Under the pieces are notes generated by a model that saw nothing but the letters and a program-made list of their open reading frames with translations, was not told the DNA's origin and did no database searches. A stretch of DNA of 64,000 bases, from positions 13,454,001 to 13,518,000 of the forward strand of contig CM022676.1 in the NCBI GenBank assembly GCA_012295275.1, read 5' to 3'. The translations under genes and the position numbers were made by a program. This document shows positions 1 to 64,000 of the stretch, piece after piece; position 1 is the first letter of the stretch, and each line of letters opens with the position of its first letter. This DNA is from Chrysomallon squamiferum (taxonomy: Eukaryota > Animalia > Mollusca).

Positions 1-213
1 AGTCAGGACAGAGTGGAACTTGTGTGTGTAACACCACTTTTCTAGGAACACCTGCTGGCACAGTAAGCTGGATAACTCCTGATGGAACTGTCACACACAC
101 ACAAACTCTTGTCTTGAAATCTATTAACAGAAAGTACAACAATCAGAACTACACTTGTCAAGTGAGAAACTACGTGGAGACCAGAAACTTGACATTTACA
201 ACAAAACTAGCAT
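1..213 (+). CDS. Gene A Ig exon, module a (partial)
   Basis: GTCVCNTT...VSW...QNYTCQV; donor T|GTATGT after 213; near-identical to 29205-29468 (-). Confidence 0.88.
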
Positions 214-3200
214 GTATGTTTACAATATCAATGTACGAATTTTAGTAACATTTTTCTTATTTGTCTGTAAATCCTCTGTGATTCACAATTTTTGTAAATT
301 AGTTTTTACTGTTAAAAAATAGTAGTGACACAAACTAAAATTGTTCTTCATAAAATGAATTGTTTGTGAAATTTTGTAATTTTCTAATACAGATTAACTG
401 TTATTATCTACCATTTTATTCTGTCTTTTGTAAGATTAAAGATACAATATATTCTAATGATGTTCCAAATTTTAGTTGGTCCTGACAGAACTGATATAAA
501 TGGAAACCAAGATAATTTTGATGCTGATGGAATCAGAAATTTGACCTTGACCTGTAAAAGTACATCATCAAGTCCCAGTGTGAACTTTACTTGGAGAAAC
601 CTCACTAGTGGTCAGATTCTGATTTCAAATGAACCAATCAGAGAACAAGACGCTGGTGATGGAGGAAAGCTGTTTAGTCAGAATCTGGTTTTGGTTCCAC
701 AGTGGTATCAAGATGGAGATGAAATAGAATGTGAAATACAGAATTCTCAGATACCTGAACAAAACTCAAAAACAAAAACTACACTGAGTTTGATTTGTGA
801 GTAGAATGTAAAATATTATTTATAATAATAGTAATGATGATGAAAATAATAATTAGCAGGCTCTTAATATATACTAGATTTAGATTTGCTAAATTTTTGA
901 TTAACAAGACATATGACATTTATATGTGTAATGTTACTCTTCACTTACAACTGGGCTAAAAAATGGACTAATTAACAGCAATCATTATATTTTTAAAATA
1001 TCTATCAAACGGATCAAAAAGTTATGCAATAATTAAATATCTATCTGTGTATGTCAGATTTATGAAGTAAACTACATCTAAAATTTTATTTATTGTTCCA
1101 TATTTATAGAAAACCATTAATAAATATACTGAAAATGAATCAACATAACTAATAAAAGTTTGATGTTTATTATAACTCAACATAAAATTATTGCATTCAG
1201 AGAAGGATGAAAAAGGATGATGCCAGACTAGAAATTTCCCCAGTTGGAGAAACATGGATGTAGTGTTATTTATCGAGAAAATTTGCCCCTTCTTTGCTAT
1301 ATGATTTAACAGTGACATATATTTCTTTCAACCATTCCGATGAACTGACTAATACATATGAGAGCACAGACTCTTTTCTGAAAATTAAAATGTCATCAGA
1401 GAGAAGACATAGTTATTTATAATAAATCTACGGATTTAAATCCATTCTCTTTTCCATAATACAGTAGTTCAAATGAGTATAATTACTATGATAATTTTTC
1501 TTTCAGCTGCACCTAAGATCATTAACAAAACAGAGAACATTGTGGGAGCTGAGATAGGAAATCCTGTTGTATTACACAAATCTGTGTTTTGTAAACCAAG
1601 TTACACAAATTTTACCTGGAGTAAATTTGATGATCAAACTGATTTTAACAACACTCTACAAATACACAGTAAAACAGTAACAGATTCTGGTTACACATTT
1701 TCTCTCAATATCAGTAATTTTACTCAAGATGACATTGGAACGTACAAACTGACTGTCTGTAATGAAGTTGGATGTTCTCAGTTTTCTGTGAACCTAACTG
1801 CAGCAGGTCCACCTCTTCCTCCTAAAGAGTTCCAACAAGAAAGAGAATCAACATCAGACACAGTGTTCTTGTCCTGGCTACCTAACTACCCAGGTGGTAA
1901 TTTCAAACAAAGATTTATACTGCAGTACAAACCACAAAGTGACTCTAACTGGATTACTGCTTGGCAAAGTGAATGGTTTGATGACTCAATACAAGGACAC
2001 AAAGTACTTTTTAATATCACAGATCTTCAGTCTAAACAAGTTTATAATATTCGACTGTCAGCTCAAAGTAGCAGACTTTCAAATAACACCAGTAAATATG
2101 TTAGACTTGATGTCACAACACAGGGTAAGTAAATTGTATATTGTGAAAACATTTAAAATTAACATAAAGTTAAAATGAAATTGATGATTCAATCACTATC
2201 TAATTATTCCAAAAAATGGAGATCATTTCTTTGTGTGTATTTTTAAAAGGTTTCAGTTTTCAGTTAAAGCTATATTTTTAGAAAGACAAAATGTGGTGCA
2301 TATAAGAATTGTGGATTAATAAAACATAATTAAGAAATCTTTGCATTTGTATTTACAGTTATTGTTTATGATGTTAAATAATTACAATTTTAGAAAAACC
2401 GAGTGGTTCAGGTTCTCTGCTTGGTGCAGCTGTAGGAGGAGCTGTTGGTTCTGTGACTGTCATTGTTGTCATAGTGATACTTGTTCTTTTACTTAGAAGA
2501 CATCTGCCATTTGTTTTCTCAAGTAAAATGGGTAATATACTGTTAAGACTACAACTGACTCAATCTCAGTGTCTGCTCTTGAAAATTTGTCGAACATGCT
2601 GTGAAGTCTACCACTATCATTTTGTTTTTTCAAGAAATGCCATGTGTTAACTCTAGGATGATAATTATCCAAACAAATTTGTTTTCAATTTCTTTTATTA
2701 TTCCTTTTTGTTTTCATCTAATATGTAATACAGATTACTGTCTTTCGTTATTTGTAGATCTATTAGGAGTGTGAAATATTGTTTATTAGTTTCTTAGTAA
2801 AAGAAGAACATTTTTGATTAAGTGATTTTAATAGAATATCCTTTTCTTCATAGATTTATAATAATGAAACAACCTATGCAACTCAAACAATAAGCAGCTT
2901 CTTCTGTTCTTAAAATAAATAATTTCCTTGCTAAAATAGTATTTTATTATCTTTAATTAAAGGTAAGGATGCAGAAAGTGGAAAGTAAGTTAACTTATTA
3001 GCTTCTATTCTGGCTTAATCTTTATTGCTTTGTGTAGTTGTTTCATTCTTTTTCTCTCTTTTTGTTTTTTTCTCAAGTCTTTCAAATACCATTTAAGTCA
3101 TACCTTCGTGTGCATTATTTCTTCATGTTTTTCTTATAACAAGAATATCTACATATGTCATGGTGTGCTTATTACTCCTAAATTCAGATAGAAATCAAGC

Positions 3201-6200
3201 AAATATTTCATTTTGTTTCATTGTGTATGTTTGTGTGTAAACAGCTGATCTTCAGCTTAAATAACTTAAATAACTCTTAATTGTGTTTTACTTGTTTGTG
3301 TTTAAAAGAGGCAAAAAGGAATTACCTTAATTCAGATAGTATTTGTAATTGCTACAATTTATTAGTTTAGAAAAGTTAAATTTAATTTGTTAATTTCTCT
3401 TGTTTTACGTTTTGTTGCTTTATTGGTAGAAGATTAAGAATAGTAAAAAAGAAAAGTTTCATAATTACCATTTTGTTATAAAATTGGCTAAAAAAGTGAT
3501 TTTGATAAATTTTACATAGGAATCCAAAGTATAATGTCATAGTGGTTTAACATTTTTATTGTTTCTACATCTAATTAAGAAGCATACAGCTACTAGACTA
3601 GTTACATACAATTACTAATCTTAAAAAGAGACATCAATATTTTTATAAAAAAGATAAAATAATTTTAAAATGGAATGAATTACTATACTGTTCTTCTTGA
3701 ATCTGCATGTAATAAAATGAATAGTCTAAATGTGATATAGGCAGCTTAATTTATTCATTAGTAATGGGTTTTTTTTTTTTTTTTAAATATATATACATAC
3801 AAAAATAAAATCTATTCCAATCTGCCAGGAATTGTTTCTATTTTAGGCATCCATAAATCTGTTTTTGTTATGCTTGTTTTTAGTATTTTGCCCTGAATTT
3901 TAAAGAATTGTTTGAAAACGTAGCTTTTGATACTGAAATAACTGTCTGGGTTAGCCTTCAGTTTGCCTCTTTAATAAAACTATTTGTATCTTTCCACCAC
4001 TCTGTCTTTTCTGAGACATACACAAATGTATCAGTATGATAAACTCTGATGTTAAATATAATAATAATTGTTTCCACACATAATCCTAAATATACATATT
4101 TGAAGCTAAATTTTAACACTTTTAATTTTTGCTTTTCAGTCCAAGGAATATACCTGCACATGAAATGCCTGGTATGAGTTACTTTTTAATAATCATTTTA
4201 CTCTTTTATTGTTGTTGTTTTTTTATAGTTTATACTTTTCCCATCATGAAATAATATCTTTTCAGTTTAACTAGGGTTTAACTTTTATTATTATTATTTT
4301 ATTAACTTTTTTCATTTCCTTTTTTGTTTGTTTATTGGGTTTTTTCTTTCTTTTTTTCCTTTACCAATGTTACTGTTTTAAATAGTATAACAACAGATAT
4401 GGGAAGAGATGTATATTTGGACTGTATCTGTTTATTTTATTTTATTTTTTTTTATTTTTAAAGAAGAAAGAACAAAAGCGTCAGAAAAAAACATACATTA
4501 AGTTTGTTATTCACTGCTTTGTGATCTTTTACAGTTTTGGAGGACAGTCAATTATATAATCTGTTTAATAACAGTTCCACATCATTAAAACTGCCTGGTA
4601 TGCCTTGTAACAAAACAATATATATATATATATATGTATTTATTTATTTATTTGTTATTTGATTTATATAACATCTATAAAGTAGTTCTAAATTTTATTA
4701 CTACATAACTTATAAAAATAATCTGTCACATTTTTAACCATTTTATTATTAATACTGTTTTATTTTAGTGTTGGAAGATAATGATTTGTATTATACCTCT
4801 AGTAATGATGGTGTAAAGAATGTACAGCTGCCAGGTGACTGATTGCAAATCTTTTCGTCTTTTTCTTTCTATTTAAGAAAAGAAAGTAAAGAGTGTGTTA
4901 TTTCATATCTTAATCAGTTTGAATAATATTTTATATATTAAACTGTCATCTTCAGATGATCTAGTTTTAGAAAAATTTTATTTTCTTTGGTAATATAAAC
5001 ATTTTAAGACTAAATAATTATTTAGAAACAAAATTACAGAATTATAACATGTTATTTTGTCTTTATATGAAAAAACAAATAACTATGGTCATATTAGGCC
5101 AGATACAAATTTAATGGGTTGCAGGATTAATAGTTTATTAAAGCCTTTTACATTCTTTCCTGTTTATGGGAAAGTGAATTTGTAAATTACTTGTTACGCA
5201 GCAATTTCGTCTTTTTTCTATTTCACATTTTGTTTGTTTCATTAAGTTCTAGAGGATAATGTGATCTATCACACAAATAATACTGCAGCTGCAAAGAAGG
5301 TACAAATACCAGGTGAGTGTAATTATATTGCTATTTTACTGCCATTATTAAGTGCTGTTTTAAATCTTGAAAATTAAGTCTTACATGTCAGCCACTCTAA
5401 GGACAATGCCCCACTTTTTAATGACAGAGGATTTTATCAAACCTTATTTAATACAAAAATACTACATTCTGATCACTGAGTATTCACTTGTTAATTTACA
5501 TACTGTCGTTGACTGAACGGCAAGCAAACAGAGTTTGATTGTAACAAATATAATTTTGTGTATCAGCTCTGAACCATCAAAATACTTTCACAATTTTATG
5601 TCATTTAAATAATAACCGAATAGTTGGTTTATATTTTTGAATATCTGATAAAGATGTGAGTGTTGATAACTAAGAGATAAATGAATGCATAAATGTACAT
5701 GTTGTTAAGTAGCTATGCTAGGTAAAAAGTGGCAAAATTTGAATACCAGACTTATTTTTGGTTTTTGACACAAGCATTTAGAAAACATACATAAAAATGT
5801 AATTTATTCTGTGCGATTTTATAGAAACAGATATCAGTTTGAATTATTTGACCTGGGTTGGAGATATTCATGAAATGTGGTAATATAATTTAAACAAATA
5901 AAATAATAATAAAATAAAAAAAATAAAACAACATTTTTTACTATAACAAATGGGCATCATTTCCATTGTTTCAATTCTGTAACATAAATATTAATGATTT
6001 TTCATTTTCGCCACATGCGCCTTTAATTAGAATAATAATAGTAATGCTTTACTATTGTTACTTTTGTTCTACATTTATTTGTTTTAATGATCTAAATTAA
6101 TAGCATTGAAGGATGTACATATATTTTTAGCTTTTAATGATGCCATTTTCAGTTTTCTCTTCTTTTAGTAATGTAATTAATGTAATGAGAATAAAATTTA

Positions 6201-7681
6201 CAATAATAGAAATTGTGTGTGTGCCTGTATGTGTGCTCAACCTGAGTTATGTTCAAGTGGGGAAAATGTGATGGAAAATCCAGAAAGCCAATATTCAGTT
6301 GTTATTAAAGCCACATGTAATCAGAGTGATTACACCGAAAAAAATAAAAAAATAAAATTACTTTGCTATGAATACAGAACACATTTAACTGTAACACATA
6401 AAAGGCAGGTGTTAATTCATTTATTTCACACAATATTTGTTATTTATGCAAAACAACAACAACAACAACACTACAGTAACTTAATAACAAAATGCCATCT
6501 CATTACATGTATGTTTCATATTTGGAATTTAGTATGAAGAATAATTTCTGTAATTTTCTGAGATTATTAGCATCTGAAGAACATATGTGGATCAAAATGT
6601 ATCTCTTGTACTGTAACATGTATGTTGTTCTAAGTGCATGGATTTCAGATATGTAGTCCAAAATTCCCATAAAAGAGTTAAAGTAAAATCACAAATAATA
6701 CTTTAAAAATGCCTTGATATTATAAAGAAAAATTAATAAACGTACTCTATTTCTAATCAATAAATATATATATATTTTATTTAGAAAGTGAAGTTTTACC
6801 AGGAATAAATACAGTTAAATCTTGAACTCAAACTTCCATTTATTAATATCCATACAAGTTTACAAATATTAATATTTTTCAAATTACTTTCTCAATTATA
6901 ATTTCACTTTTAAAATGATTTTTGTTTTTCTTCCTATTGCAGATGATAAAAGACCACTGCATCAGTCTTCAAGGGGTAAATATATTTGAGAATTTATCAT
7001 TTTGAATTTATAAATAACCAATAACAATTAAAAAAAAATTTAAATTTAAAATAAAAGAAAGAAAATCTTATTACTCAATATTGATTAGTGCTATTCTCTT
7101 TCACATTTGCTAAAATGAAATTTTAAAATTGAAATATATTTTCCATTGCAGTTATATAATTTTTTGGGGGATTTATGAAATCAACTCATCAACTGTTGTC
7201 TAAGAAGCAGACATGTCCCTTTATAATTTTTTGTGTTTTAATTCAGGTGATACTTACGAAAATGTTGGAATTGGAAAAGTAGATAATCAATATGCTAATG
7301 CTGCTTACAGTGGAAATGATGATCCTACCTGTGAAAATGTCAAGGTAATTGTATTGAATGTTGTGTTAATGTAATTATATGAAGCCTGCAAAAGACATGG
7401 TATAAAGGAAATAAAAATAGACAAACGATTAATTGAAAAGATACTGTTAATAGCAGGGAGGCATATGTATACTTTTTAAGCTGACAACAGCTCAATTATT
7501 TCAGGGACCAAAGCATGGACGAAATAAAGATGGGTTGCTGTATGTTGGTATAGATTTCTCTAACACACAACCAAGTAAACAAGTTCACAAAACACAGGAC
7601 AAAGTGGAGTACATCTCCATTGACTGGAACAAGAAAGCAGAACCACTTCCTGATAATAAAGAAACTGAACCAAAATATTAA
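1..7681 (+). CDS. Gene A: IgSF (Ig-Ig-Ig-FN3-TM) receptor with ITIM-bearing cytoplasmic tail, 5' end outside window; exons <1-213, 476-796, 1507-2124, 2394-2531, 2963-2984, 4140-4171, 4535-4597, 4769-4834, 5247-5312, 6943-6975, 7247-7344, 7505-7681
   Basis: All listed exons have AG/GT boundaries and join in one continuous frame to TAA at 7679-7681. Ig motifs (C...W...YxC), FN3 motif (LSW...F.LQYK...L....Y..RL.A), hydrophobic TM followed by RR, tail with LLYVGI and VEYISI. Confidence 0.88.
476..796 (+). CDS. Gene A Ig (C2-set-like) exon, module b
   Basis: tttag| acceptor, LTLTC...FTW...DGDEIECE, T|GTGAGT donor; 321 nt, same length as paralogue 28563-28883. Confidence 0.9.
1507..2124 (+). CDS. 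Gene A Ig+FN3 exon, module g
   Basis: tttcag| acceptor, G|GTAAGT donor; Ig (FTW...DIGTYKLTVCNEVG) followed by FN3 (GPPLPP...LSW.P...QRFILQYK). Confidence 0.92.
2394..2531 (+). CDS. Gene A transmembrane exon (TM type 1)
   Basis: EKPSGSGSLLGAAVGGAVGSVTVIVVIVILVLLLRRHLPFVFSSKM; paralogue at 57049-57186 (-). Confidence 0.88.
4535..5312 (+). CDS. Gene A three tandemly duplicated cytoplasmic micro-exons (4535-4597, 4769-4834, 5247-5312), each VLED-x3-Y...P
   Basis: VLEDSQLYNLFNNSSTSLKLP / VLEDNDLYYTSSNDGVKNVQLP / VLEDNVIYHTNNTAAAKKVQIP; all phase 1-1 with AG/GT. Confidence 0.82.
6235..6340 (+). pseudogene. Decayed cytoplasmic exon of gene A containing SQYSVV (ITIM consensus), splice sites lost
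   Basis: AQPE...ENPESQYSVVIK is homologous to the intact exon at 13757-13891 (-), but the acceptor and donor regions are missing here. Confidence 0.7.
7247..7344 (+). CDS. Gene A cytoplasmic exon with YENV / YANA motifs
   Basis: GDTYENVGIGKVDNQYANAAYSGNDDPTCENVK; attcag| and |GTAATT; paralogue 12862-12959 (-). Confidence 0.83.
7505..7681 (+). CDS. Gene A terminal exon with two ITIMs
   Basis: GPKHGRNKDGLLYVGIDFSNTQPSKQVHKTQDKVEYISIDWNKKAEPLPDNKETEPKY*; tttcag| acceptor, phase 0 matches the preceding exon; AATAAA near 7740. Confidence 0.87.
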   Translation, partial: GPKHGRNKDGLLYVGIDFSNTQPSKQVHKTQDKVEYISIDWNKKAEPLPDNKETEPKY

Positions 7682-10681
7682 TGAACAAAATGTTATATTC
7701 ATATGGAACCAAACCCCTATAAAAACTACAACAAAATGAAATAAAAATCCACTATTTTATATATTTGTACTTTTATTTACTTTTCAAAATATCATCAGCT
7801 ATTTAATGTTTGGTATTTTTTCTTTATCTGCCATAAACAAAAGTGTTCATGTATTATACCATACAGAGAAATTTGTAGATAAAATCTGAAGAGATCATTA
7901 GCATTCTTCCAGAATTATAATACAGTGACTATGGAATTCCAAGAAAAGAAATAATGCTTAGCAAGAATTATTAATTTTTGAACAAATATGGACCATGTCT
8001 AAAATGTATTGATTATAATTTTTTAATGCTTTAGTTACAGTTGTGTTCTAATACTGTTTTAGAGCTTTCCTTCATGTATAAACAATTTTAGGGTTGTTAT
8101 TGTGAACTGTGTCACAAAATGATTTCAAACTGGAGAATACTTATTTTAAATTGAAGAAAAAGTACCTCAAAAATGAATTCTTTTTTCCCCTATAAATAAG
8201 AAGTGAACTATTAAGAATGAATAGAGAAATCTTAGTTTTATATTGTTAAGAATAAAATATATTTTATAACTAAAATAAAAATAATTATTTTCTATTTTAT
8301 GTATTTTTTTTAAAATATACAAAATACTTGTATTTCTTGTAAATATATATTTTAATGTGTGTGTGTGTGTCTGTGTGAGTTCCTTAAATGTATGTTTGCA
8401 GAAATATGTGTTAAATGGAATAAGTACATTTTGATACAGGTGTAAATATGTTTCATTAAGAGATCTATAGTTTGAATGTAAGTATGAATATATTCATACA
8501 AAATCTAATTTAAGGTCAGACAAAATCAATTTTGTATAATTTTGTATGCTATTTTATTTTATTTTTAAAACGGAGTTAGAAAACTAGACAATATAAATTC
8601 TGACAAGGATGTTTATCATGTTCATTTAGTATTTTGCTTTTCTCTTCCATACAAAAGATTTTACTTAAATGTATTATTAGAGGCAATCTAATTCAGGCTT
8701 CAAGTATTTGTAGTTTTTATTTCCTTCTTAATTCGGTGTGCCTAAAAGAATTGACACCTGGACAGGATTCTAAAAATGACACATCAATAAACAAATGTAA
8801 ACTTAACAATGTTGCCTGTTTCTCATCCAGATTTTTTGTTACTTTCATATTTTGTGAATTACATTGTGTGTCTAATTGTTGAATAAATTGACTTTGTTTC
8901 ATAACCAATTTATTGATTATTTTACAAAATCTTTACCTATGGTCCTAATATGTACTAATTAACGAAAATTACTGGGATAACATTACAAGTCTAATACCAA
9001 ATTATTTAGAGTTTTTTGTTCTCTTTGATATATAAAATTTAATACATCTGTTTCAATCAGGATAGTTTTATTATTTTCATAGAGCTCACACTGTGGGAAT
9101 ATTGTTAAGTATTTTTAAATATTAGCTGATGATACTGCAAATATTTATTTTTATTCATAATATTAAATTGAGAGTGTAAAGTTAATATTGTTTATTAATT
9201 TTCAATATTAAAAAACAATGAAATAAGTGCTGCTTTTAACAAATCCTGATTTTTGCTATATTGATTTTTGTATCACATTGTATAGTTTTATGGATATTTG
9301 TAAAATGTTAGCATTTGCATTGTTGTATTCGTTTTAATCAATTGCTTCTACTTATTAATATATTTTTATTGTTGTTGTTGTTGTTGTAAATAGACAAAAT
9401 ATTCCATCATAATTTCTTAAACATTCCATGAAATGATTTTCTATTGACAGATTTTATTTTGAGTGTCTGAGATTTTGCATCATTTATAAAGGATAAATAT
9501 TTTATTTAAGAAATATTTCAAAAATTAAATGATGTTTGATATGAGATACGTTTTTCATCATGTTTATTTGGAGTAAGTTGATGGATTCAGTGCTAATGGA
9601 TTTTTATTGTTGGCTGTTTAAGTCAGTATCCAGCTTGTATAAACAAAACTGTTATATTAAATTGCCAACACGTCCGATAGGTATGCATACATTATATTCA
9701 TACATACATATATTATATATACATTATATACATATATACATGCATTATTATACATATATTATATACATATATACATGCATTATATACATACATACGTACA
9801 ATATACAGACATATATACATACATTTATTTGCTATTTATAAATACAAAATGATATCAAATGTTAAATTCTCAAATATAGTTACTACTGGAAGACTGGTGC
9901 AATGATTTTTCATCACCTCAATAGGGGAAGAAACACAACCAAATATTTTAAAAGTAAAATAAATTATAACTGAGAAAGTAATTTGAAAAATATTATTATT
10001 TGTATGGATATTAATAAAGGGATAGTTGTGTTCAAGATTCATCAGAATTCTCTTTCTAACCAAAAATATATGTTTATTAATTAACAAGAGTACAAGTTGT
10101 TTATTAATTTTGCTTTGTATATAAAACACCTTTCAAAGTATTATTTGAGATTTTATTTAAACTTTTTTTAATGTGAATTTTGGTCTGAATGTTTTTAAAC
10201 CATACACTTAAAACAACATTTGACATATTCAAGTACAAAGAGATACATCTGTTAATAATCTCTGAAAATTACAAAATTATTCTTCCTAATAAATCCCAAG
10301 AATGAAATGCAGGACAAGGAATGACCGAATTAGTTTTAAAAAGATGTCAAACTGGAAAACGTTGTCTTTCTGTTAGTAACTTAGGACTGTACCAATATGT
10401 TACATCCTCTACGTCAGACTGATGTGCTTGCTTTCGTGAATCTTTTTTACTTGGTAAATGTAAAACTATCATTCTAAGATGCAGTTTTAATCATAACTGG
10501 TGCATCACTACAATCTTGTATTAGAGAAGTTTTTGTAAAAAAGTAAATTAAAATATCAAAAGAGTCAAAGTTAAACTGTTACAGATGTCTTAATTAAAGG
10601 TATGTCTTATAAAAGATGATATTACATTTCTCACATAAACCTTTTGAATAATTTGAATAAATTGGAGTTAAAATCTTTGAG

Positions 10682-10714
<33 letters not shown>

Positions 10715-10872
10715 TTATTTTTATATTTTATTATTTTTTTTTTGTTTTTTAGGAAAATTAAATTTCACTTTATTGTTTCATGCTATATCATGGTCCATAC
10801 TTCCAAACACTAATCATATCTGTTTTTTTGTATACAAAATAAACTAATAAAAACGTAACAATTGTATAGTCT

Positions 10873-10930
<58 letters not shown>

Positions 10931-13915
10931 TTCACAATCCTAATGGGTAAAAAATGTTATATTACAGCTGATTCACCTTTTTTTGTTTTCTTTTTTTTGT
11001 TTATCGTTTGCATTAACCAAAGCCTATCCTTTCTTTATCTCTTTCTTCTCATTTTTCATTTATTGATCTGCAACATCAAAAATCTGATGAGGCGGCATTT
11101 AAAAAAAAAAAACTTAAGGAGTTCATTAATTTTGTTTTAAAATGAAATTAACTGATTAGTTAAATGCGCTTTAGTGCAGAAATAACAAGAATTATGTTAA
11201 ATGAATTAATAAAGATCCTGAAAGTAACATGATAAAAGAAAATAACATGACTTGTATGACTTTCAGTTAAATATTTTATTTACTCATATCAAAATAATGT
11301 TTTGCTTTTATCATACCTCTGTCGTTTTCTTTGTTTTCAGTTTAATTGCTCTGTTTGGTCTTAATAACAACTGAATATTGGTTTTCTGAGTTTTCAGTAA
11401 CAGATTCCTCACTTGTACCTGGCTCAGGTTCGGCAATATTTGTTTCTTCAAAGAATGTGAAACAAATTTACGCTTATGTCATCTTATGTTGTATTTGTAT
11501 TTTATTACATTAGTTACATTAATAGAAGAGGAACAAAATTAAAAAATATAGAATCAAAAACTGACGATATGTGTACATCATTCAATGCTATTAATTTAGA
11601 TCACCAATAGTAATAAAATATAACAGAAAATTTAAACAAAATAAAAATATAATGAAACACAAAAATAAACAGCAGCAGTAATATCAACTGTAGAAATAGA
11701 ACAAATGTAACAATAGTAAAGCATTACTTTTATTATTCTAATTAAAGGGGCATGTAGTGAAAAATCATTTTTTATTTATGTTACAGAATTGAAAGATTTG
11801 AAATAATGTCCTTTTATTACATCATAAAAATAGTTTTGGTTTATTATTTTACGACAAATTTTTATTTTTACTTTTGTCTTTTTTTTAAATACCGTGCTAT
11901 TCAAATTGCTGGGCTTCATCATAAAACAAAAAAATTAATCTTTACTTAAATACTTCAAAAGAAAGTAATGTATATATATATATATGACATTTTATTTTTT
12001 ATTTAAAAAAAAGAAAAAAGACAACAACAAAAACACAGGAAAGTTATATAAAGGTCATATGAAAAGAAGAGATAATGTTTCCAAGATTTTCTTTCAGTCA
12101 TTTTAAAGTGTTTGTTTCTAAATATATACATTTCTAATTTGGAAAAGAAAAAAGACATGACACATTTATATGAAAAAGTAAATTTTGTCACTAGCATACC
12201 CCGTTAACAACATATAAATTTAGGCATTCATTAACTATTAGTTATTAATGGTCACATTTTCTTTAACACATATTCACAAATATAAACCAGATACTGGGTT
12301 ATTACTTAAATGACATGAAATTGTTGAAATGTTTTAATCTATTCAGTTTGTGATACATAAAACAATATTTATTATAATCAAACAGTTTTTTTGCTATTCA
12401 GTCATTCACATTAGGTATATTAACAACTAAACAATCAGATCAGAATGTAATATTTCTGTATTAAAGTCCGTAGAGTGGCTGAAATGTAAGACAATATTTT
12501 CAAGAATACAACGTTACACAAGATTGAAAAATAACACTAAATTATGTTAATAATGAATGTAACATAATAATATATTTACACTTATCTAGTTTTTGCCTCT
12601 TTTTGCAGCTGCAGCATTAGTTGTATGATAGATCATATTATCCATATTACCCATCTTAATCTCGGCCACACTTTGCTCCCTGAAATAACAGAGGCATAAA
12701 ATGAAACAACCAGTTGATGGTGTCAGCTTAAAACGTATGCATCTGCCTTCCTGTTATCAACAGTAACTGTACTTTTTTTCTTCTTCTATTTTTAATGTCT
12801 TTATATCATGTTTTTTTCAGGCTTCTTATACTTACGTTAAAATAACAGTCAATAAAATTACCGTAACATTTTCACAGGCAGGATCATCATTTCCACTGTA
12901 AGCAGCATTAACATATATATTATATTCTTTTCCAATTCCAACATTTTCGTAACTATCACCTAAATTAAAACACGTCTTAGGCAACAGTTGATGAGTTGGT
13001 TTCATAATTCCCCCACCCAAAAAACAATTACGTAACTGTAATGAAATGGAAAGATTATGTTTCAATTTTAAAATTTCACTTGACCAAATGTGAAAAAGAA
13101 TATCACTAATTAGAATAGAGTCATTATAAGACTTTTTTTTTAATTTTTAAATTTTTAATTATTTGCTATTGATAAATTCAAAATGATACCAGATGTTAAA
13201 TTCTCAAATATATTTACTCCTTGAAGACTGATGCAGTGGTCTTTTATCATCTGCAATATGGGAACAAAAACAAAAACATTTTAAAAGTGAAATAAATTAA
13301 AACTGAGAAAGTAACTTGAACAAATATTATTACCTGTAAAGTTGTATGGATATTAAATGGAAAATAGAGTTCAAGATTCACCTGTATTCATTCCTTGTAT
13401 AAATTCACTTTCTAATTATAAATTTATATTTTTTACTTACAAATAGAACATGTGTTTATTAATTTTTCTTTGCATACTAAGCACTTTTCAAAGTATTATA
13501 TGAAATTTTATTTAAACCTTTTTTTTTGGGGGGGGAATTTTGGTCTGAATGTTTGAAATCCAAATAAGCAGTTCAGTTATCTTTTAAGTTACTTATTTTA
13601 GTGGGGTTTTTTGTGAAGAAATAAAAAATATGATGTTAAATAAATGAATGAAAATATTGAGAGGCACATATGAAATAACATAACATCTGGCTGTTATGGT
13701 TTACAGTTAAATGTTTTATTTACTCATATCGAAGTAATTTTTTGTTTTTAACATACCTCTGTCTTTTTCTTTCTTGTCAGTAATATCACTCTGTTTACAT
13801 CTGTTCTTAACAACAACTGAATATTGGCTTTCTGGATTTTCCATCACATTTTTCTCACTTGTAACTGTCTCAGGTTGAGCAGTATTTGTTTCTTCAAAAA
13901 ATATGAATGAATGTA

Positions 13916-14704
13916 CAGTGATACTTAAGTTACGAGTGCACCAGCTTATGAGTTTTCTGAGTTACGAGCAGTCGCAGAGGTGATTTTTTGCTTTGAGTTG
14001 TGAGCCAAAATCTGAATTACGAGTGAGTTTCAGATACACCGCCGCTAGTTGGCGCAATGAACAACATAACATCGGCCCAGCATCCCGTGCCTCGCTCACT
14101 TGATTTATGTCGTTACCTCGCCATTGAAGCACCTCTATTATGCTTGTGTTTTATGCAGTATTTTGCCAAATTTCTGTTTTCTGACCATGAATCCTAAGAA
14201 AGTGAATGCAAAGGACATTGCTGAGAAGAAGAAATGGATGATGTCCATTGAATTAAAGCATGAAATAAACGAAAAACATGAGCGAGGTGTGCATGCAGTC
14301 AAAATGGCTAGGCAATACGAGCGTAGTACTACTATGATACATACCATACTAAAACAGAAGGAGTTGATAAAAGCTACAACTCCTGCTAAAGGTGTTAAAA
14401 TAATTTTAAAGCATCAGACCTATGTCATGAAAAGACTGAAAAACCCTAACCATGTACACTTTACAAAATCAATCTATTTCTTTACAGTCTCTTTTATTTT
14501 GTTTTTATACAATATGTGTCGTTTATACATGCATTTTTCTTATTTAAAAATATGTTACAAAAAAATGGAGTAGTTTTGGGGAGACTGGAACAGATTAATG
14601 GTATTTCAATAATTTGATTTTGGAAAATTGATTTGCTATATGAGCAAACTGAGTTACTAGCTGGGTCACAGAACAAATTAAACTCATAAGTCAAGGTACC
14701 ACTG
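13916..14704 (+). mobile_element. Internally deleted Tigger/pogo-family (Tc1/mariner superfamily) DNA transposon
   Basis: TA target duplications flank imperfect TIRs CAGTGATACTTAAGTTACGAG / CTCATAAGTCAAGGTACCACTG; ORF 14100-14573 includes a CENP-B-type N-terminal HTH-like fragment (MSIELKHEINEKHERGV...MARQYERS...IHTILKQK). Confidence 0.88.
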
Positions 14705-17392: not shown

Positions 17393-17423
<31 letters not shown>

Positions 17424-19125
17424 TACAAAAGTAATTTTAATTATTGTGGTTTGGAAAATGATTTAACTGATTTTCATCATATCTCAAAAATATTTAATTA
17501 CATTTACATTAAAAAAGTTTTATTTTTTAAAACACATGTATATACATAAAATGCAAGTACTTTGTAGTAGTTGAGTAATAATAAACATGGATCTTTTCTT
17601 AGTTTTGTCGAACCATTTTCCAAGTAAATATTATTTAGCAGAACTTAACAATGTGATCACTGACTTAATGCTTCTGTGTTCTTAGTTATTTTTACACCAT
17701 TAATACATATACATTTTTCAAACTGTTAATTACTGTGCTAATTATAAATTGCTGAGATCCAACTACTAAAAAATAAATTAAAAAATATGAAAATATCATA
17801 CATGTACAAATACCAAAGCCAATCTGAAATCAAAGGCTTGTTTCTCATTATTGCTGAAAAAATATAAAATCTTGACAGACATGTACAGACAGATGTACTA
17901 TTATTTTTCTTGTAACATGGATAACAAATGAAATTTTAAACCAGTAAACAAGTGTTTCTTAAATATTAATATTTACTCCAAAGATGCAAATTGGTCTAAT
18001 TAACAGCATGAGACAAAGACATATTAAATGCCTGAGTGCCAGAGGTGAATTCACAGATTATAAATAAAATGTTCTGATGTTTATACTCCATGTTTGACCC
18101 CTCGATCTCTGGCAACATATAAACTGACTAACTTGTATATTTATTAATGGTTTTCTGTTAATATGGAACAACAAATAAAATTTTAGATGTAGTTTACTTC
18201 ATCCAGGAACTGATATACTTTTTACTTTTTCATAGTTATTAGTCCTTATATCAACTTTTAGCCCAGTTTTAAGGAAAGAGTAAAATAATACTTATAACTG
18301 TGTAAAGAGGAAATGAAATTTCAAAACTGAGTTTATCAAATATCGTTAAAAAGGTATATCCATATATATACCAGATAAATACAGTTAAATATTACTTTCT
18401 TTACAATTAGGATTATTTAAAATTATATACTCTTTAAAAATATGTTCAACTAAATTATACAATACATTTTAGAACTGAGTAATAATCTATGAACCTGCCT
18501 AAACTTTTGCAACATGATACTGAATAGATGTTAACTTAGGTATTATATCACAGGCAATGCAAAAAAAATAAAAAAATAAAATAAAACTGAGCAAAATTCA
18601 ATATAAAATAAAATAACCGTCACACACATATTATAAGTTTATATATATATAAATATCAAGACATTTTATTTTCTATCAGTGTACTCAACATTTCTTAGAA
18701 CAAGGTTTGCCAATATTAACTGGAACGAACAGTGTCAAAATACAAGAACTGTGTTTCATTAAAGTATTTAGTGTTATATTTTCAGATTACTTTGGATCGT
18801 TTTTGTGGAGTGTGAAGTTATTTGTAGCCTGACACATAAATGTCTGACTGTTGTCTGTGTAGGACAGATTTTTGAACAGCCAGTAGGAGTTTGTGTGTGT
18901 GGAATCTTTCACTCCGTTATTAAACCAGACAGTCACAAATGGGACACTGCACGTCAGGTTTCTAATCTGACATTCTAACAACACAGCGAATGTTGAGTGT
19001 GTCTCCTTCATAAATCATTTGTCCTGTCTCGTATCCTCTTATTTCTGAAAACACAAATTTTACTAGTCAAAAATTACATTTAAAATTGTTATTATCTGTT
19101 TAATATCACATGAATAGTTTAAAAA

Positions 19126-19219
<94 letters not shown>

Positions 19220-20280: not shown

Positions 20281-20321
<41 letters not shown>

Positions 20322-20706: not shown

Positions 20707-20771
<65 letters not shown>

Positions 20772-56392: not shown

Positions 56393-56511
56393 TCATTTGT
56401 CACTTTTCTTCAGATTTTCATACAGGTTCAGTTTAGTGTATTGTGGTTCTTCTCTGCTTTCTTGCAGACCTTGATACGTGTGGTCAGCTGTTACAGTGTT
56501 ATTTACAGCAC
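56393..56511 (-). CDS. Gene E terminal ITAM exon
   Basis: GAVNNTVTADHT-YQGL-QESREEPQ-YTKL-NL-YENL-KKSDK*. Confidence 0.87.
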
Positions 56512-59500
56512 CTGAAATAATTTTAAATGTTTAAATAAAATATATTCTCTTTAAAATAACACTGATTTCATTATAGGTTAAGAAATATAATTATGTTTAC
56601 CAGTTTGTCTCAGATTTTCGTACATCTCAATTCTTGAGTATTCAGTAGTATCTCTGTTTTGTTGAAGTCCTTCGTATGTTTGATCTGTAACTGGACTAGG
56701 ATGTTCCATAACTGTAAAGGTAACAGAAATCAGAAACTGATAGACAAAATATTACAACATTTAGAATTGTGTTCAGGAAAATACTGAACTGTTACAAAAA
56801 CAGCAACAACGACTATTACTGCTGGTACTACAAGTATTAATGCTACAACGTAATTTTATGTAATATTTGTGAAAGATTTTATCGTATGTTTTGTGTGTTT
56901 TTTTGTTTTTTTACCGTTATGCTAAAAGGTAAGAATCTTCAGGTATAGATTATTATAATTGAAGGATTCACAATGAAGAAAATAACCTACAAGACAGTTA
57001 CTGTTATTGTTTAATTTATCACAATTTGCAGATTGTTTAAGAAGATACCAGATTTGTTTGAAAATGGTCCACGTCTTCTAAGCAAGAAAACAAGTATCAC
57101 TATGACAACAATGACAGTCACAGAACCAACAGCTCCTCCTACAGCTGCACCAAGCAGAGAACTAGAACCAATCTGTTCTTCTGAAGCTGTAATAGATAAA
57201 TAACAACTATAAAGTATAATACCATTTTTTTCTTCTAAAGATGTAATTGTTAAATAACATATATAATACCATTTTGCTGTTCTACAGATGTAAATGATAT
57301 TAATATTTCACTTATAATTGTTTTTCTGTAAACGAAAGAAACACTATTTTATTATTAGTATTATTAATAGTAATTAAATACCATAGTAACATTTTATTCT
57401 TCAGTAACTGTTATCAATGCTTAATGATGATTGATATTATTATTATTTTTTAAATGTTTATCATGGAAAGGTGATTAATAATTAAATACAAGCAATAATG
57501 TTGTTATAAAATTGTAATTACAAAATAAATATCAAACAAATTCATCTTTTTATTATAAAACCGTAAAATGTATTAATGTGTATGTATATGTGTGTGTGTG
57601 TGTGCGCGCGCGCAGGGATATATTGACTTACGAGTGCCCCAACTGAATCTCGATCACAAAACGAATTAAACTCGTAAGTCAAGGTATCACTGTATATATA
57701 TGTAATTTTCCGCCTGCTTGTTAAGACAATTTCTAATGTTAGTAAAAAGAAAGAAAACCTTTCAGATGTGTGATTGGATTATACTAAAAATCAGCAGAGA
57801 GAAGAGTGATAAATATTGTATGGAAATGAATGAAATGTAAGATACTTCCACTGAAAATGAATAAAATTCTGTAACAAAAGAAAATAAATATACTCATTCG
57901 CATAGAGATACACGAAAACACACATGCAATCTTACACTCAGAGCTGTATAAACAGTAATACACTAATAGTATATACTCTGTAACTGGAATAAAACATCAA
58001 AAGGTAATAAATCCAATATTACCAAACATGATAAAATTCAATTAAATGATTTAACTATAAAGCTATATATATTTATACTGAGAAATTGTAGAACATATAA
58101 ATATTTCATACGTATTTATTTTCATCGTTTTTGTACATATTTTATTTTATTTTACTACTGGTACTACTACTAACAAAATAATTTTCATTTAATTAAATTT
58201 AATAGCAGATAACCTTTTGTAATTACTTGAAAAATGACGTAATTGCTCATATTGTCTTGAGTTCTTTTGTTTTCAGCAGAAATTCTGACATCATAAATTG
58301 TTTTGTCTTTGAGATTGCTGATATTAAAATATATTTTCTGTCCTTGTGTTTAGTAATCGAACAGTTCACTATGGCAAGTAGTAATCCAGTTAATCTTTAC
58401 TTACCCTGTGTTTTAACTTCAAGTGTAACATATTTACTGATGTTATTTGAAAGTCTGTTACTCTCAGCTGTCAGTCGAATATTGTAAACTTGTTTAGGCT
58501 GAAGATCTGTGATGTTGAAAAATATTTTGTGTCTGTATGCTGAGTCATCAAATAATTCACTTTGCCAAGCAGTTATCCAGTTAGATTCACTTTGTGCTTT
58601 GTACTGCAGTATAAATCTTTGTTTGAAATTACCACCTGGGTAGTTAGGTACCCATGACAAGAACACTGTGTCTGATGTTGATTCTCTTTCTTGTTGGAAC
58701 TCTTTAGGAGGAAGAGGTGGACCTGCTCCAGTTAGGTTCACAGAAAACTGAGAACATCCAACTTCATTACAGACAGTCAGCTTGTACATTCCAATGTCAT
58801 CTTGAGTAAAATTACTGATACTGAGAGAAAACTTGTAACCAGAATCTGCTACTGTCTTACTGTGTATTTGTAGTGTGATGTTTTCTCTTGTGACCTGACT
58901 GTTGTTAAAGTCAGTTTGATCATCAAATTTACTCCAGGTAAAAGTTGTGTAACTTGGATTACAAAACATAGATTTGTGTAATACAACAGGATTTCCTATC
59001 TCAGCTCCCACAATGTTGTCCATTTTGTTAATGATCTTAGGTGCAGCTGAAAGTAAAAATAACCATATTAATTATAATCATTTAAACTACTGCAATATTG
59101 AATATTTGAATGCAGCTGAAAGTGTAATTATATGAATGATAAACAGTTAAACTATTGCATTATTAAAAAGAGATTATATTTGAATGCAGCTGAAAGTATA
59201 ATTATATTAATGATAAAGATTTACCTATTGTATTGTAATGTGTGTTTATTTTAAACATGTGAAGAGTAATAATTCTTAACAAAAGTAATTTGAAATATTG
59301 TAGTGTTCCAGAGGATTTAATCAATTTTTACAATACATGAACAAATTTAGACATTCAACATTAAGAAATATAAAGATCTGAATTTTTAAAACACATGGAT
59401 GCTGCTGTGTTCTTTGTTAAGTATAACTCAATTTTATACATTATTGAATATTTGTTCTTCTTTCGAACTTTTAATTACTGAACCAATACTGTTTAGTTAT

Positions 59501-62500
59501 CATTCAATCTCTCGGTCATAAAATTGATGCTGATCTCATAAATGGTTTTTCTCCCAAACTGTATAACAAAGCAATGAAATCTGTTTATAGCCTAACAGTT
59601 AAAAGTCGTCAGAATAACCTCCCCATCAACTGTGTAGTTGATTTATTTGATAAATTAATACAGCCAATTTTATTGTATGGTTGTGGAATACGGTGCTTTA
59701 CAAATATATAACTAATAGAAAGACTCCATATGAAATTGTGTAAGTATTTACTAAATGTTAATAAATGTACCCCTGGTTTTATGATCTATGGTGAACTCGG
59801 ACGGTATCCCCTTTGTATTTCTATAAAAGTAAGAATGATAACGTTTTGGGGGAACCTAATTTGCAAAACCCAAAACAAGATTTCCTCACAACTATATTAT
59901 TTAATGCATGTTATCGATTCTGCTTACAACAAATTTGTAATAAATATTGAAGATGTTTGTGGTTTAACATATATATGGACGTATTACAACTTTGATAATG
60001 TTAAATGGTTACATATCCAAAATATTACATGATCAGTTTTAACAATTATGGAAAAATCAAACTGAAACATTTCTAAAGGCTATTAATTATAATTTTTTTT
60101 AAAATGAACTGAAATTAGAAAACCATCTTATTTTGCTGTCTCAGAAGAATGCTAATATCTTATGTAAATTTAGAACCGCGAATGCTAAACTTCCTTTTGA
60201 AACTGGACGATGGTCTAATATTCTAAGACTCTTAGTAAGAGACAACAGAAAATGTTATATCTGTAATCTTAACAAAATTGGAGATGAATGTAATGATCCT
60301 GTATTATTAAATGAAACAAAAGGTATCCAAGATAAATATATGAGACATTCAAATATAATTTCATAAAATAATTTGTTTAACAGTAAAAATATATTTTTAT
60401 TAAAAAAGCTATGTTTGGTAATAAGAACTGTATGTGAGAGTATGTCCTCCACTTTAAAATTCCACATATGTGTATTATAATTTTGTTATTATGTAGCTGT
60501 AATACATTCTTCTCTGTACTGTAATCCTACAGTTTATGACAATAAAGTCACTGTCATTGTCATTGTCATCAACAATTTTTATCTTTCCAGAGCTTCACTC
60601 TTAATACCAAATATAACAGTGTTGACTTGTCTATATCACACCAGTCCAAGTTCAAAGCTTGTTTCTGGTTACTGCTGAACAAAGAAAACATAGACAGACT
60701 GAAAAATGTGGAAGTCATACGGGTGTTAAATTTATTGTTACATGGATAACAAATGTTGGTTCAATTATAGACCAGTATACAAGTCCTTCTTAAAAGATTA
60801 GTTTTGTTGCACGGATGCAATTTGTTACAGAATGAGACAAAGATGTAAGAAATCTCTCAGCTATCTAAGGTGAATTCACTGATTATTAATCACATGTGCT
60901 GAGGTGTAGACTCCATGTTTGACCCCTCAATCTTTGGCTACATATAAAGCTACTAACTTTATGTTTATCAATGATTTTCTGTAAATATGGAGTAATAAAT
61001 ACAATTTTGGATGAAGTTTACTTCATTAATTTGATTCACCAGGAAACTGATTTATTTCTTTTACCTTTTTACCCTTAAATACGTCTGAAAGGATTTTTTA
61101 TAAATAGCGATTGCTATGTCAACTGTTAGCATAGTTTTAAGGAAATAAAATAAAAAAATTGAGTTTATAATATATTTCAAAAAAAGGTTGTATATATATA
61201 TATACACACATACAAGATAAATACAGTTAAATAATTTTCTTCACAACTAGAATTATTTAAAAATTATTACTATTAAAAAATATGGAAACTATGTTACACA
61301 TTACATTTGAGAATTCAGTAGCCATTTATGAAACCTGCATAGAAATTTGGAACATGACAGTGAACAGATGTTAATTGAGGTATTATTATATAGGTTGTGG
61401 AAGTTCAGTAAACATTATTGTTTTGTTATTAAATTATAGATTGGTACCTTTAACATAAACACTGCTGATTTTGTTTTGTAGTAAACGTCCATTCCTGTCT
61501 GGGATTCCATTTTCCACAATACAGACGTAGATTCCACTGTCTTCAAATGTAACAGGATTAAACTTCAATCTGTACTGATTACCTGTTACCTTTGTTCCTG
61601 ACACATCTTGAATAAACACGTCATTCCAGTAATGTTTGAAGTGTTTGAAGTTCATGTTGTCAGGACGACCATCAGCAGAACAGTTGATATTCAGTGACAT
61701 GTTTTCAGTTGTGTTTAAAGAAGGAAAAGTCAGATCAGGAGCATCTGTAAACAATTACTAAATTTACAGTAATAAACCAAGTCATCAAGTTAAACAAGTC
61801 GTCATACACTTGATAATCTAACTGTCTGCCTAAAGATAACAGATCACAATAACTAAAACAAGATACTATTTTATAAATATGTTATATGTACATTTACAAT
61901 TCCATTTTATAAAAAAACAAAAATGCAAAACAAACAAACCCCAACCCCCCCCCCCAAAACTAGAAACATTGCTGATAAATACTTAATTAGGAATTAAAAT
62001 ATAATTTACATAGAAAGTTAACAGAAAACTCAAATAATTAGTGTTTTAATTACTCACAGTTAACTATAATTTTAATCTGAGATGTTCCAGTTAGTGTTGC
62101 CAGTGAAGATGACGCTGTTGCTGTACACGTGTATGTACCGTGGTGGTCTCTGTCAAGTACTGGAATATGTAAAGGGAAACCACCAGTCCAGTGAGGTGAG
62201 GTTGATGTCCAGTTGAGTGTTGTGTTTGGAGGATTGTTGTCTGCAGAACAGTTGACTACATCCAGACTTTGTCCTTCCCGTCTTATGATTGGTCCTGATT
62301 TATCAATACTCACTCGTGGTTGGTCTGTTAAAAATTAAGAATAAGAATGATGTAAATGTGAAATTTAAAGTATGTAAACTGCTGACTCACCTCATATTTT
62401 TCCACAATCTTTCTATTAGATATACTTATATAAATAAACATAATAAGATGATATTTTCTCAATGTTCAGTTTAACAAATAATAAAATCCTATTTGTTGAT

Positions 62501-64000
62501 TTTATTGTTTACTTGAACTTCCATATGGTATTTATATTTTAATAAATATTAGAATCATATACTGACAATTAATATACCAATTATTTTATCAAAAATTACC
62601 AGTTCCCTTAATATTGTCTTTTTCTCTACTTATGATAAAAACAGTGAATGTTGTAATGCACTAAACACTTTTTTTCTAATTACTGAGTCATTTTTTTCAT
62701 GGAAAAAGTGTTATCAACACACCATGATTGTTTCCATACATTAGTAGTTGGAAGACAAAAAATGTTGACTTTGGTAAACAACTTCTCTGTATTTTAAATA
62801 AATATAGCTGCAGGAATTTTGATAGCAAAGTGAAAATTAACCACATAAAAGAATTAAGGAAACACATGTGTTGAACTGAAAGACGCTGTCCAGAAAAAGC
62901 AAGACAATATTAATCAAGTTCTAAATAATAAATAAAGAAGCTTTTGACAACGCAAATAGTACAGAAAAAAAACATTTCAGTGAATAGAAAATTCAACAAA
63001 ATTCAACATAAAATAAAATAATACTCATGCATGATTTGGTAAGTTTATATGTATAAATATCCAGATTATTTTAATTTTCTTTAAGAGTACTCATCATTAA
63101 TTAGAACTAGATTTGTGAATAGAACATTTCAGAGATAATAACATTTTGTTTCATTAAACTACACAGTACTCACAGTAAACATTTAGTGTTTTATTTTCAG
63201 ATGACTTTGGATCATTTTTGTGGAGTGTGAAGTTATTTGTAGCCTGACACATAAATGTCTGACTGTTGTCTGTGTAGGACAGATTTTTGAACAGCCAGTA
63301 GGAGTTTGTGTGTGTGGAATCTTTCACTCCGTTCTTAAACCAGACAGTCACAGCTGGAGGATTTCCTCTGTCAGACACTGCACAAGTCAGCTTTCTACTC
63401 AGACCTTCTAACCACGGAAAACTCAAACTTGAAACCAGATCTGGTGATGATGGCGGATCTAAACAAAACATTATAAAGAATTTATTAAAATGTCGAATTA
63501 AAAATACTTTAAGAATAATAAAAAAGTAAACCAAGAAAACAAAGTATTTTAGTGTTCTAATCATTATGTTTGTTAATTTCCTTTCAGTGTTTTTACTGTT
63601 GCTTTCATCATTGTTACTGTTATTGTTATTATCATCACTGTTATTATTATTATCATCACCATCAATATCATTTCCATTATTATTTTCATCGTCATTATTA
63701 TTATTATTATTTGTATTATTGTTGTTGTTGTTGTTGTTGTTGTTATTATTATTATTATTACTACTATTATCACTATTATATACTTACAGTACACAGTGAG
63801 TGTTTCAGTGTCTGTGAGATTATATCTGTGAGTCTGGTGAACTGCACTGCACTGACAAGTCTTAGAGTTGAGATTTCTTGTAACTGTAAATGACAAATCT
63901 ACAAAAACACTGTTTTCATCTCTCTCAGATGAAGTTTTCATGTGAGCTGTGTCACAAGACAGACTTACTGATGTCACTAGAGGTTTACCACCTGACACAA
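56393..64000 (-). CDS. Gene E: multi-Ig-FN3-TM receptor with two ITAMs, 5' end outside window; exons >64000-63788, 63458-63174, 62324-62058, 61744-61448, 59046-58405, 57186-57049, 56711-56601, 56511-56393
   Basis: All boundaries AG/GT, phase 1-1, continuous frame to TGA at 56395-56393. Confidence 0.88.
56601..56711 (-). CDS. Gene E first ITAM exon
   Basis: VMEHPSPVTDQT-YEGL-QQNRDTTE-YSRI-EM-YENL-RQT. Confidence 0.87.
57049..57186 (-). CDS. Gene E transmembrane exon (TM type 1)
   Basis: SEEQIGSSSLLGAAVGGAVGSVTVIVVIVILVFLLRRRGPFSNKS; alternative in-frame acceptor 6 nt inside. Confidence 0.87.
57613..57692. mobile_element. 80-bp MITE-like derivative of the same Tigger/pogo family
   Basis: TTGACTTACGAG ... 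CTCGTAAGTCAAGGTATCACTG+TA: only the two TIR ends remain. Confidence 0.75.
58405..59046 (-). CDS. Gene E Ig+FN3 exon, module g
   Basis: Paralogue of 1507-2124 with an extra 8 aa (SQVTRENI). Confidence 0.92.
59550..60569 (+). mobile_element. 5'-truncated degenerate non-LTR retrotransposon (LINE) 3' end, antisense in a gene E intron
   Basis: LFDKLIQPILLYGC, YGELGRYPL, KFRTANAKLPFETGRW and RKCYICNLNKIGDE motifs typical of LINE ORF2 C-termini; AATAAA followed by a (TGTCAT)n tail. Confidence 0.85.
61448..61744 (-). CDS. Gene E Ig exon, module k
   Basis: LNINCSADGRP...FEDSGIYVCIVENG. Confidence 0.9.
62058..62324 (-). CDS. Gene E Ig exon, module j
   Basis: EGQSLDVVNCSADNNPP...LNW...DHHGTYTCTA. Confidence 0.88.
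63174..63458 (-). CDS. Gene E Ig exon, module d
   Basis: Near-identical to 27308-27592. Confidence 0.9.
63788..64000 (-). CDS. Gene E Ig exon, module c (partial)
   Basis: Near-identical to 27913-28209. Confidence 0.88.

Follow-up and report, generated by a model that had tools for sequence, protein, structure and literature searches.

A tandem family of putative paired receptors with ITIM and ITAM tails in the vent snail Chrysomallon squamiferum

Pathogens can exploit inhibitory receptors, and the paired receptors that counter them are commonly regarded as a vertebrate solution. Clusters of immunoglobulin (Ig) receptors carrying immunoreceptor tyrosine-based activation or inhibitory motifs (ITAMs or ITIMs) have already been found in one cnidarian and one tunicate, as have single receptors of this kind in the oyster. 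Here we describe a 64,000-nucleotide stretch of the genome of the vent snail C. squamiferum (GenBank assembly GCA_012295275.1, contig CM022676.1, positions 13,454,001 to 13,518,000; hereafter the window), in which four genes (A, C, D and E) and a pseudogene (B) form a tandem family of predicted single-pass Ig–FN3 receptors. Their ITIM or ITAM tails appear to sit on recently exchanged modules, and we consider the genes likely to be paired immune receptors.

Among mammalian receptors, SIGLEC11/16, CD300A/C and CEACAM are reportedly paired, with homogenised ectodomains. For KLRC, KLRI, KLRB, Ly49 and PIR, the ligand-binding domains of opposing partners are described as having been homogenised after speciation (PMC3210942). 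The window resembles such systems, as portrayed in that source, in its clustered paralogues, its opposite tyrosine motifs and its grouping of ectodomains by species and of tails by class (PMC3210942). It differs from them in that the ITAMs lie in the receptor's own tail, the transmembrane segments shown have no charged residue, no orthology is shown, homogenisation is seen for the proximal Ig–FN3–transmembrane module only, and function is predicted from sequence.

In the oyster, CgNCAM1 and the receptor CgIgIT carry the comparison into molluscs. CgNCAM1 is described as having three Ig domains, an FN3 domain, a transmembrane segment and two ITIMs, and as co-precipitating with SHIP2 (PMC11841013); it is, like gene A, a molluscan Ig–FN3–transmembrane receptor with two ITIMs, a likeness by description, whereas the passages devoted to it present a gene on its own and mention neither an activating partner nor a cluster. 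CgIgR, with five Ig domains, a transmembrane segment and an ITAM, is reported to interact with CgSyk (PMC6994640); its printed motif, YTEL-x8-YEKL, resembles by description the YECL-x7-YEKL of genes C and D, but it has no FN3 domain and appears in the relevant passages as a single gene without a paired inhibitory partner. Among gastropods, the Biomphalaria clusters PTC1/GRC, PTC2 and LG5R encode single-pass receptors, some with FN3, that are tied to parasite resistance; unlike the receptors studied here they are not multi-Ig, and the term 'ITIM' is absent from the main text (PMC13712769).

The Hydractinia Alr complex is described as a 41-locus cluster with Ig and FN3-like domains, transmembrane segments, pseudogenes, and ITAM and ITIM tails (PMC9546547). 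It differs in being cnidarian, in having one to three Ig domains that lack diagnostic motifs and in being genetically tied to allorecognition, and its tails are mostly unalignable (PMC9546547), whereas the two tail classes of the window are conserved across species. Botryllus FcoR belongs to the Ig superfamily and is reported to carry ITIM or hemITAM tails, to recombine between genes and to vary in gene content (PMC12582321, PMC12065747); it is set apart by its Sushi domain, its hemITAM, its pairing with fester genes and its motif swap by splicing, compared with FN3 domains, full ITAMs and a tail swap at the DNA level here. A review of the invertebrate Ig superfamily (PMC11999971) describes no family like that of the window in its available portions, and the word 'immunoglobulin' does not occur in the available text of the vent-snail genome paper (PMC7736800). 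A clustered molluscan ITIM/ITAM pair with lineage-specific ectodomain homogenisation was not found in the open-licence PMC and bioRxiv literature, though oyster work in subscription journals could overlap with the present findings.

Ectodomain modules and tails in two snails

A preliminary description of the window, made from its letters without database searches, had proposed that ectodomain exons are shared across tail classes, and the comparisons bear this out. The Ig–FN3 exons of A (ITIM) and E (ITAM) are 89% identical in nucleotides, with a synonymous divergence (dS) of 0.11, and the Ig exons of A and C, which for A are the most distal ones visible, and of E and C are 90–96% identical in amino acids. 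Across the whole Ig–FN3–transmembrane module A and E share 87% of residues, and their similarity drops just past the RR stop-transfer codons, at the cytoplasmic face. The tails of A and E do not match each other at E ≤ 1, nor does any ITIM tail match any ITAM tail at E ≤ 0.001 among those compared. Global intron identities between A and E were not used, because AT-rich DNA aligns by chance.

The same arrangement recurs in another vent snail, Gigantopelta aegis, whose gene models are the closest relatives. A search with the Ig–FN3 exon of A returned five proteins among 825 candidates, all from this snail, at 57–59% identity and labelled titin-, DSCAM-, syg-2-, NCAM- and hemicentin-like; no cnidarian protein was among the matches. 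The C-termini of the G. aegis proteins P0004 and P0005 carry the same double ITAM as E (46–49% identity over 67–68 residues), and P0009 and P0025, obtained from cluster look-ups, combine a module of the same type with an A-type tail that contains LVYVGI and VEYMSI (46% identity to A over 192 residues for P0025, 63% over 99 residues for P0009). The modules of P0025 (ITIM) and P0005 (ITAM) are 98% identical, those of the two Gigantopelta ITIM genes 63%, and those of the window and Gigantopelta 54–62%. In a tree of nine modules, built with no outgroup and from an incomplete Gigantopelta set of predicted models, a topology forced to group the six known ITIM/ITAM genes by tail was rejected (ΔlnL 242, approximately unbiased (AU) test, P = 5.8 × 10⁻⁶⁰), as it was when P0025 was omitted (AU P = 2.5 × 10⁻⁵).

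Because the modules, within this Ig–FN3–transmembrane segment, group by species and the tails by class, ectodomains appear to have been exchanged across tail classes after the snails split, separately in each lineage, while the tail homologies place the tail classes themselves before that split. By these comparisons the pattern is one of within-lineage homogenisation as in vertebrate paired receptors, for the membrane-proximal module only. A direction of transfer from activating to inhibitory genes, suggested by the transmembrane sequence, was dropped, the tree having no root.

Neutral unequal crossing-over in a fast-turnover family might leave a similar trace; the tails would then be real and would signal, while the partners would share no ligand and would not be strictly paired. 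Synonymous divergence fits such a process, being similarly low (dS 0.05–0.14) in all paralogue pairs with synonymous changes, whatever their tail, and so do the dead chimera B, the frameshift in D and the lack of a tblastn match between the V exon of C and that of D. Cross-class pairing nonetheless appears separately in two lineages, both tail classes have been kept, and the A/E similarity falls where the cytoplasmic part starts; we judge neutral shuffling rather unlikely.

The inhibitory tail reaches further back. The last exon of A has relatives in the abalones Haliotis rubra and H. cracherodii and in the clam Ruditapes philippinarum, where it lies behind a transmembrane segment, and the A-type tail is homologous to that of the Haliotis protein P0007; the 23-residue spacing of the two ITIM tyrosines of A recurs in both the snail and the abalone proteins. 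Because of these relatives in abalone and clam, the inhibitory tail module is likely to be older than the gastropod–bivalve split. No oyster protein was among the named matches of the searches with the Ig–FN3 and tail exons of A, the oyster sequences themselves not having been compared. Among 15 matches, of which 12 were examined (P0018, P0019 and P0022 were left out), P0011 and P0012 were dropped as repetitive chance matches; of ten that were looked up, three bear a species name. The independent origin first proposed for the cluster agrees with these results in part: no orthology to vertebrate or cnidarian receptors is detectable, yet within molluscs the ITIM tail exon has a long history, and oyster ITAM/ITIM receptors have been published.

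It had also been anticipated that automatic annotation would mislabel such genes and miss their tails. The labels are indeed hemicentin-, titin-, NCAM-, DSCAM- or syg-2-like, or uncharacterized, but a motif-bearing tail is present in four of the seven Gigantopelta models that bear the module.

Gene models and transcripts

The window is AT-rich (21–33% GC per 2 kb) and dense in microsatellites, and the exon models (Table 1) were built by hand with splice sites and reading phase checked. All eight motif strings quoted in the preliminary description are present, each within a frame-consistent GT–AG exon downstream of the transmembrane exon. In-frame GT–AG joining extends to every exon of A, C and E and to the exons of D past its V exon, and all 14 ectodomain exon translations tested from the four genes matched a Pfam Ig or FN3 domain at E ≤ 0.01. 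The bare ITAM pattern is no evidence alone, because it has 69 six-frame matches, mostly microsatellite junk, with only 4 in the tail exons. When the tails were shuffled 20,000 times, two ITAMs never arose for E, and one ITAM arose in 0.06% (C) and 0.18% (D) of trials. The exons are modular and nearly all of phase 1, which makes in-frame shuffling possible.

The gene anatomy is real, and more ragged than first stated. The earlier count of at least five loci with signal peptide, Ig, FN3 and transmembrane segments was too high: FN3 and transmembrane exons are present in A, C, D and E, and B has neither. A signal-peptide-like first exon, judged by eye, is found in B, C and D and not in the others, A and E both starting outside the window.

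Table 1. Coordinates of the receptor genes and their relics, numbered from the first letter of the window
Feature	Position	Strand	Remarks
Gene A, ectodomain and transmembrane segment	3..2531	+	5′ end outside window; in-frame model, Pfam
Gene A ectodomain exons	Ig 3-213 (partial); Ig 476-796; Ig–FN3 1507-2124; transmembrane 2394-2531	+	
Identical run in transmembrane exons of A and E	2412..2485	+	74 nt; E from 57162 downward
Gene A inhibitory-type tail	2963..7681	+	In-frame GT–AG model, RNA contigs, homologous tails elsewhere
Gene A tail exons	2963-2984; 4140-4171; 4769-4834; 5247-5312; 6943-6975; 7247-7344; 7505-7681	+	
Decayed gene A tail exon	6209..6330	+	Carries SQYSVV, a third ITIM-like motif; no splice sites located
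Gene A ITIMs	LLYVGI 7535; VEYISI 7604	+	
Pseudogene B	9825..21927	−	
Gene C	23579..33185	−	901-residue model; in-frame model, Pfam
Gene C exons	Signal-peptide-like 33185-33131 (by eye); seven Ig exons; FN3 26333-26031; transmembrane 25691-25578	−	
Gene C tail exons	25266-25233; 24904-24855; 24010-23912 (YECL-x7-YEKL); 23604-23579	−	Tail of 70 residues
Gene C ITAM	YECL 23984; YEKL 23951	−	
Gene D	35249..42939	−	
Gene D ectodomain exons	Signal-peptide-like 42939-42885; V-like 42000-41684	−	Four further Ig domains
Gene D membrane-proximal and tail exons	FN3 37728-37441; transmembrane 37154-37029; ITAM exon 35764-35666	−	
Gene D ITAM	YECL 35738; YEKL 35705	−	
Orphan last exon of a C/D-type gene	43859..44045	−	GNVYENTV*
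Gene E	56393..64000	−	5′ end outside window; in-frame model, Pfam, RNA contig
Gene E ectodomain exons	Ig from window end to 61448; Ig–FN3 59046-58405; transmembrane 57186-57049	−	
Gene E ITAM exons	56711-56601 (YEGL-x8-YSRI); 56511-56393 (YQGL-x8-YTKL)	−	
Gene E ITAMs	YEGL 56676, YSRI 56640; YQGL 56476, YTKL 56440	−	

The tail of A comprises 174 residues over seven small exons, the last part holding both ITIMs. Its decayed third motif has a counterpart in SLYASV, at the corresponding place in the tail of G. aegis P0009; the copy of the exon in B (13892-13757) has a donor. E has at least five Ig domains, an FN3 domain, a transmembrane segment and two ITAM exons. C and D share the same FN3–transmembrane–tail part behind different sets of Ig domains, their tails being 90% identical in amino acids with a ratio of nonsynonymous to synonymous divergence (dN/dS) of 0.40. 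In the third exon of C the sole in-phase donor (30512) is weak and shortens the Ig domain, and the V-like exon of D, 317 nt long, is frameshifted. In a search with the FN3 exon of C for longer proteins none of 40 candidates matched (weak evidence), so that the FN3–transmembrane–tail module of C and D found no relative elsewhere.

Further observations concern the same genes. YEN motifs (YENV, YENT and YENL) occur in all four tails and are conserved elsewhere, as YENV and YQNL in Gigantopelta and YENT in abalone. The N-terminal domain of C resembles mollusc clusters and V-set clusters in Atlas, which is a lead only, and in the frames read the V-like exon of D has neither of the canonical Ig cysteines, in contrast to that of C. 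Part of the FN3 coding stretch of E is duplicated just downstream of its exon (58271-58392, minus strand), and the intron preceding the Ig–FN3 exon holds broken open reading frames (59475-60366, plus strand), which we take to resemble the terminal part of a reverse transcriptase element of the LINE type. Between 55000 and 63000 the best DNA runs contain a fraction of only 0.22–0.41 of the sampled words, which may reflect high haplotype divergence or fragmented contigs.

RNA contigs aligned to positions 1-8300 of the window indicate that both E-type and A-type sequence is transcribed. A-type contigs span three of the seven tail introns (4170-4768, 6974-7246 and 7342-7503), and a contig of 877 nt carries the letters of E at 29 of 29 listed sites and joins the FN3 exon to the transmembrane exon of E. 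A third, mosaic variant is transcribed as well, since a further abundant contig agrees with only 8 of the 23 E-type letters. Stretches that no contig covers were not read as untranscribed. An RNA joint at 213-476 was rejected as support for A, since 8 of its 10 listed letters are those of C, which makes it a C-like transcript. In the predicted models of G. aegis the tails are joined to the transmembrane segment.

Pseudogene B, a dead chimera, combines a start of C/D type (first exon at about 21928-21874) with shared Ig exon fragments (19615-18766) and an A-type tail, present as duplicated remnants; it has no ITIMs, its last exon containing stops and ending short of them. The orphan exon upstream of D is a relic of a further tandem unit. 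Other traces of turnover lie beside these. The promoter and first-exon region is repeated ahead of B, C and D (33123-33396, 34166-34374, 21849-22305 and 42863-43330), the fourth of these, near 34200, being a relic with no ATG, and the tandem unit takes in the last exon of the preceding gene. A short element is present in two copies, 78% identical (14179-14707, inside the tail of B, and 44869-45408), whose reading-frame remnants resemble the N-terminus of a pogo/Tigger-type transposase. A further receptor-like gene at 45812-48163 (plus strand) has a C2-set Ig exon (Pfam PF08205, E = 2.4 × 10⁻⁷) that runs into stop codons shortly before a possible donor, followed by an exon with a transmembrane-like segment and a long polar tail bearing neither ITAM nor ITIM; it has no blastn match to A–E.

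Proposed function and its alternatives

Under the mechanism we propose, ectodomains would move between tail classes by gene conversion or unequal crossing-over with an endpoint close to the inner face of the transmembrane exon, so that the extracellular parts of activating and inhibitory members would stay matched. Partners on haemocytes would bind the same ligand, a microbial surface or a self marker; ligand-driven clustering would let a Src-family kinase phosphorylate the tail tyrosines. A Syk-family kinase with tandem SH2 domains would then bind to ITAM members and a SHP or SHIP phosphatase to ITIM members, and the balance of the two would set phagocytosis or inflammatory output. The chain from clustering through phosphorylation to Syk and SHP is established in vertebrates, and its operation here is proposed because of the analogy with CgIgR–Syk and CgNCAM1–SHIP2 in the oyster.

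The genes could instead be lineage-expanded adhesion or recognition molecules of the nephrin/SYG-2 type, their tyrosines docking adaptors for cytoskeletal or developmental signalling. The YEN motifs are possible Grb2-type docking sites, additional to the ITAMs and ITIMs, and the layout of C, with seven Ig domains, FN3 and a transmembrane segment, resembles that of nephrin; nephrin clusters are among the Atlas feature matches (0.93–0.94), and syg-2-like is among the source labels. The genes have, however, no close orthologue that is named or of solved structure, the best PDB matches of P0005 being generic Ig proteins (CEA at 1.7 × 10⁻²⁸ and FCRL5 at 1 × 10⁻¹⁵, with SYG-2 12th of 52 at 4.6 × 10⁻¹¹); double ITAMs with canonical spacing are conserved. 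Nor are these single-copy orthologues of a known adhesion family, as the preliminary description had allowed they might be: the family is multi-copy and pseudogene-rich, with 54–62% identity between related snails, unlike conserved adhesion genes, so that a nephrin-type role seems improbable.

The allorecognition part of the earlier reading fell away, as nothing points to it, and a locus like Hydractinia Alr or Botryllus FcoR is very improbable. The general layout, with V/I-set Ig domains, FN3, a transmembrane segment and ITAM or ITIM, is the same, but the window has ordinary Pfam matches in five to seven Ig domains where one to three atypical ones are described for Alr (PMC9546547). The top Atlas feature match of P0005 is the cnidarian cluster 'Allorecognition 2' (0.96), an alignment-free score and a lead only; the structure matches of P0005 in Atlas, all with a template-modelling score below 0.5, are uninformative. 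The transcribed mosaic variant would suit allorecognition, against which we count that, this solitary snail has no known natural fusion reaction. The cluster is not shown to be a member of the Alr, FcoR or nephrin family.

Several observations weigh against the genes being paired receptors. The two ITIMs of A recur in 4% of tail shuffles, weakly above chance, so that the case for this tail rests on conservation and not on the motif; in abalone the second tyrosine (TEYAGI) does not fit the ITIM consensus. For Gigantopelta the proteins come from predicted models, in which mis-joins occur, P0001 ending in a transposase-like piece (PF13358). Among the RNA joints listed, four of the seven tail introns of A, including the one from transmembrane segment to tail, have none; the A-type contigs differ from the window by about 4–7% and may represent another allele or a paralogue, the 877-nt contig continues for 269 nt against the 254 nt needed to reach the stop of E, a fit in length, and the tails of C and D lie outside the RNA-compared region. 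No sign of positive selection was seen, dN/dS being 0.2–0.6 over the few codons of ectodomain exons with synonymous changes, which appear to be under purifying selection. In mammals it is the ligand-binding domain that has been homogenised, and here it is the membrane-proximal module; A and E have their distal domains beyond the window, which limits their comparison to the proximal module, and the V domains of C and P0005 share only 33% identity.

The proposal of paired receptors divides. A near-identical Ig–FN3–transmembrane module in an ITIM/ITAM pair within each of two lineages, with older tail classes, speaks for it; a shared ligand is not supported, since the window does not reach the N-termini of A and E, and the V exon of C has no match to that of D. 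On sequence grounds the cluster would work like a paired receptor cluster, with strict membership, in the sense of a shared ligand and opposite signals, putative. The fuller claim, of a true molluscan paired immunoreceptor complex in which an old ITIM tail and ITAM tails stand side by side and ectodomains are repeatedly copied between them in each lineage, a lophotrochozoan case convergent with the arms-race signature of Ly49, PIR and Siglec, is one we advance tentatively, as a real possibility.

What the paired-receptor reading now rests on is an evolutionary signature in two lineages, beyond motifs alone. If it is true, a third main branch of animals would have the paired-receptor design, and that signature would be shown to be convergent. 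The G. aegis genes XP_041378941.1 and XP_041378983.1, which annotation masks with names like 'hemicentin-1-like' or 'uncharacterized', are candidates that may offer an entry to the discrimination of symbionts from pathogens, and in symbiont-bearing snails such receptors could decide how far bacteria are tolerated or attacked.

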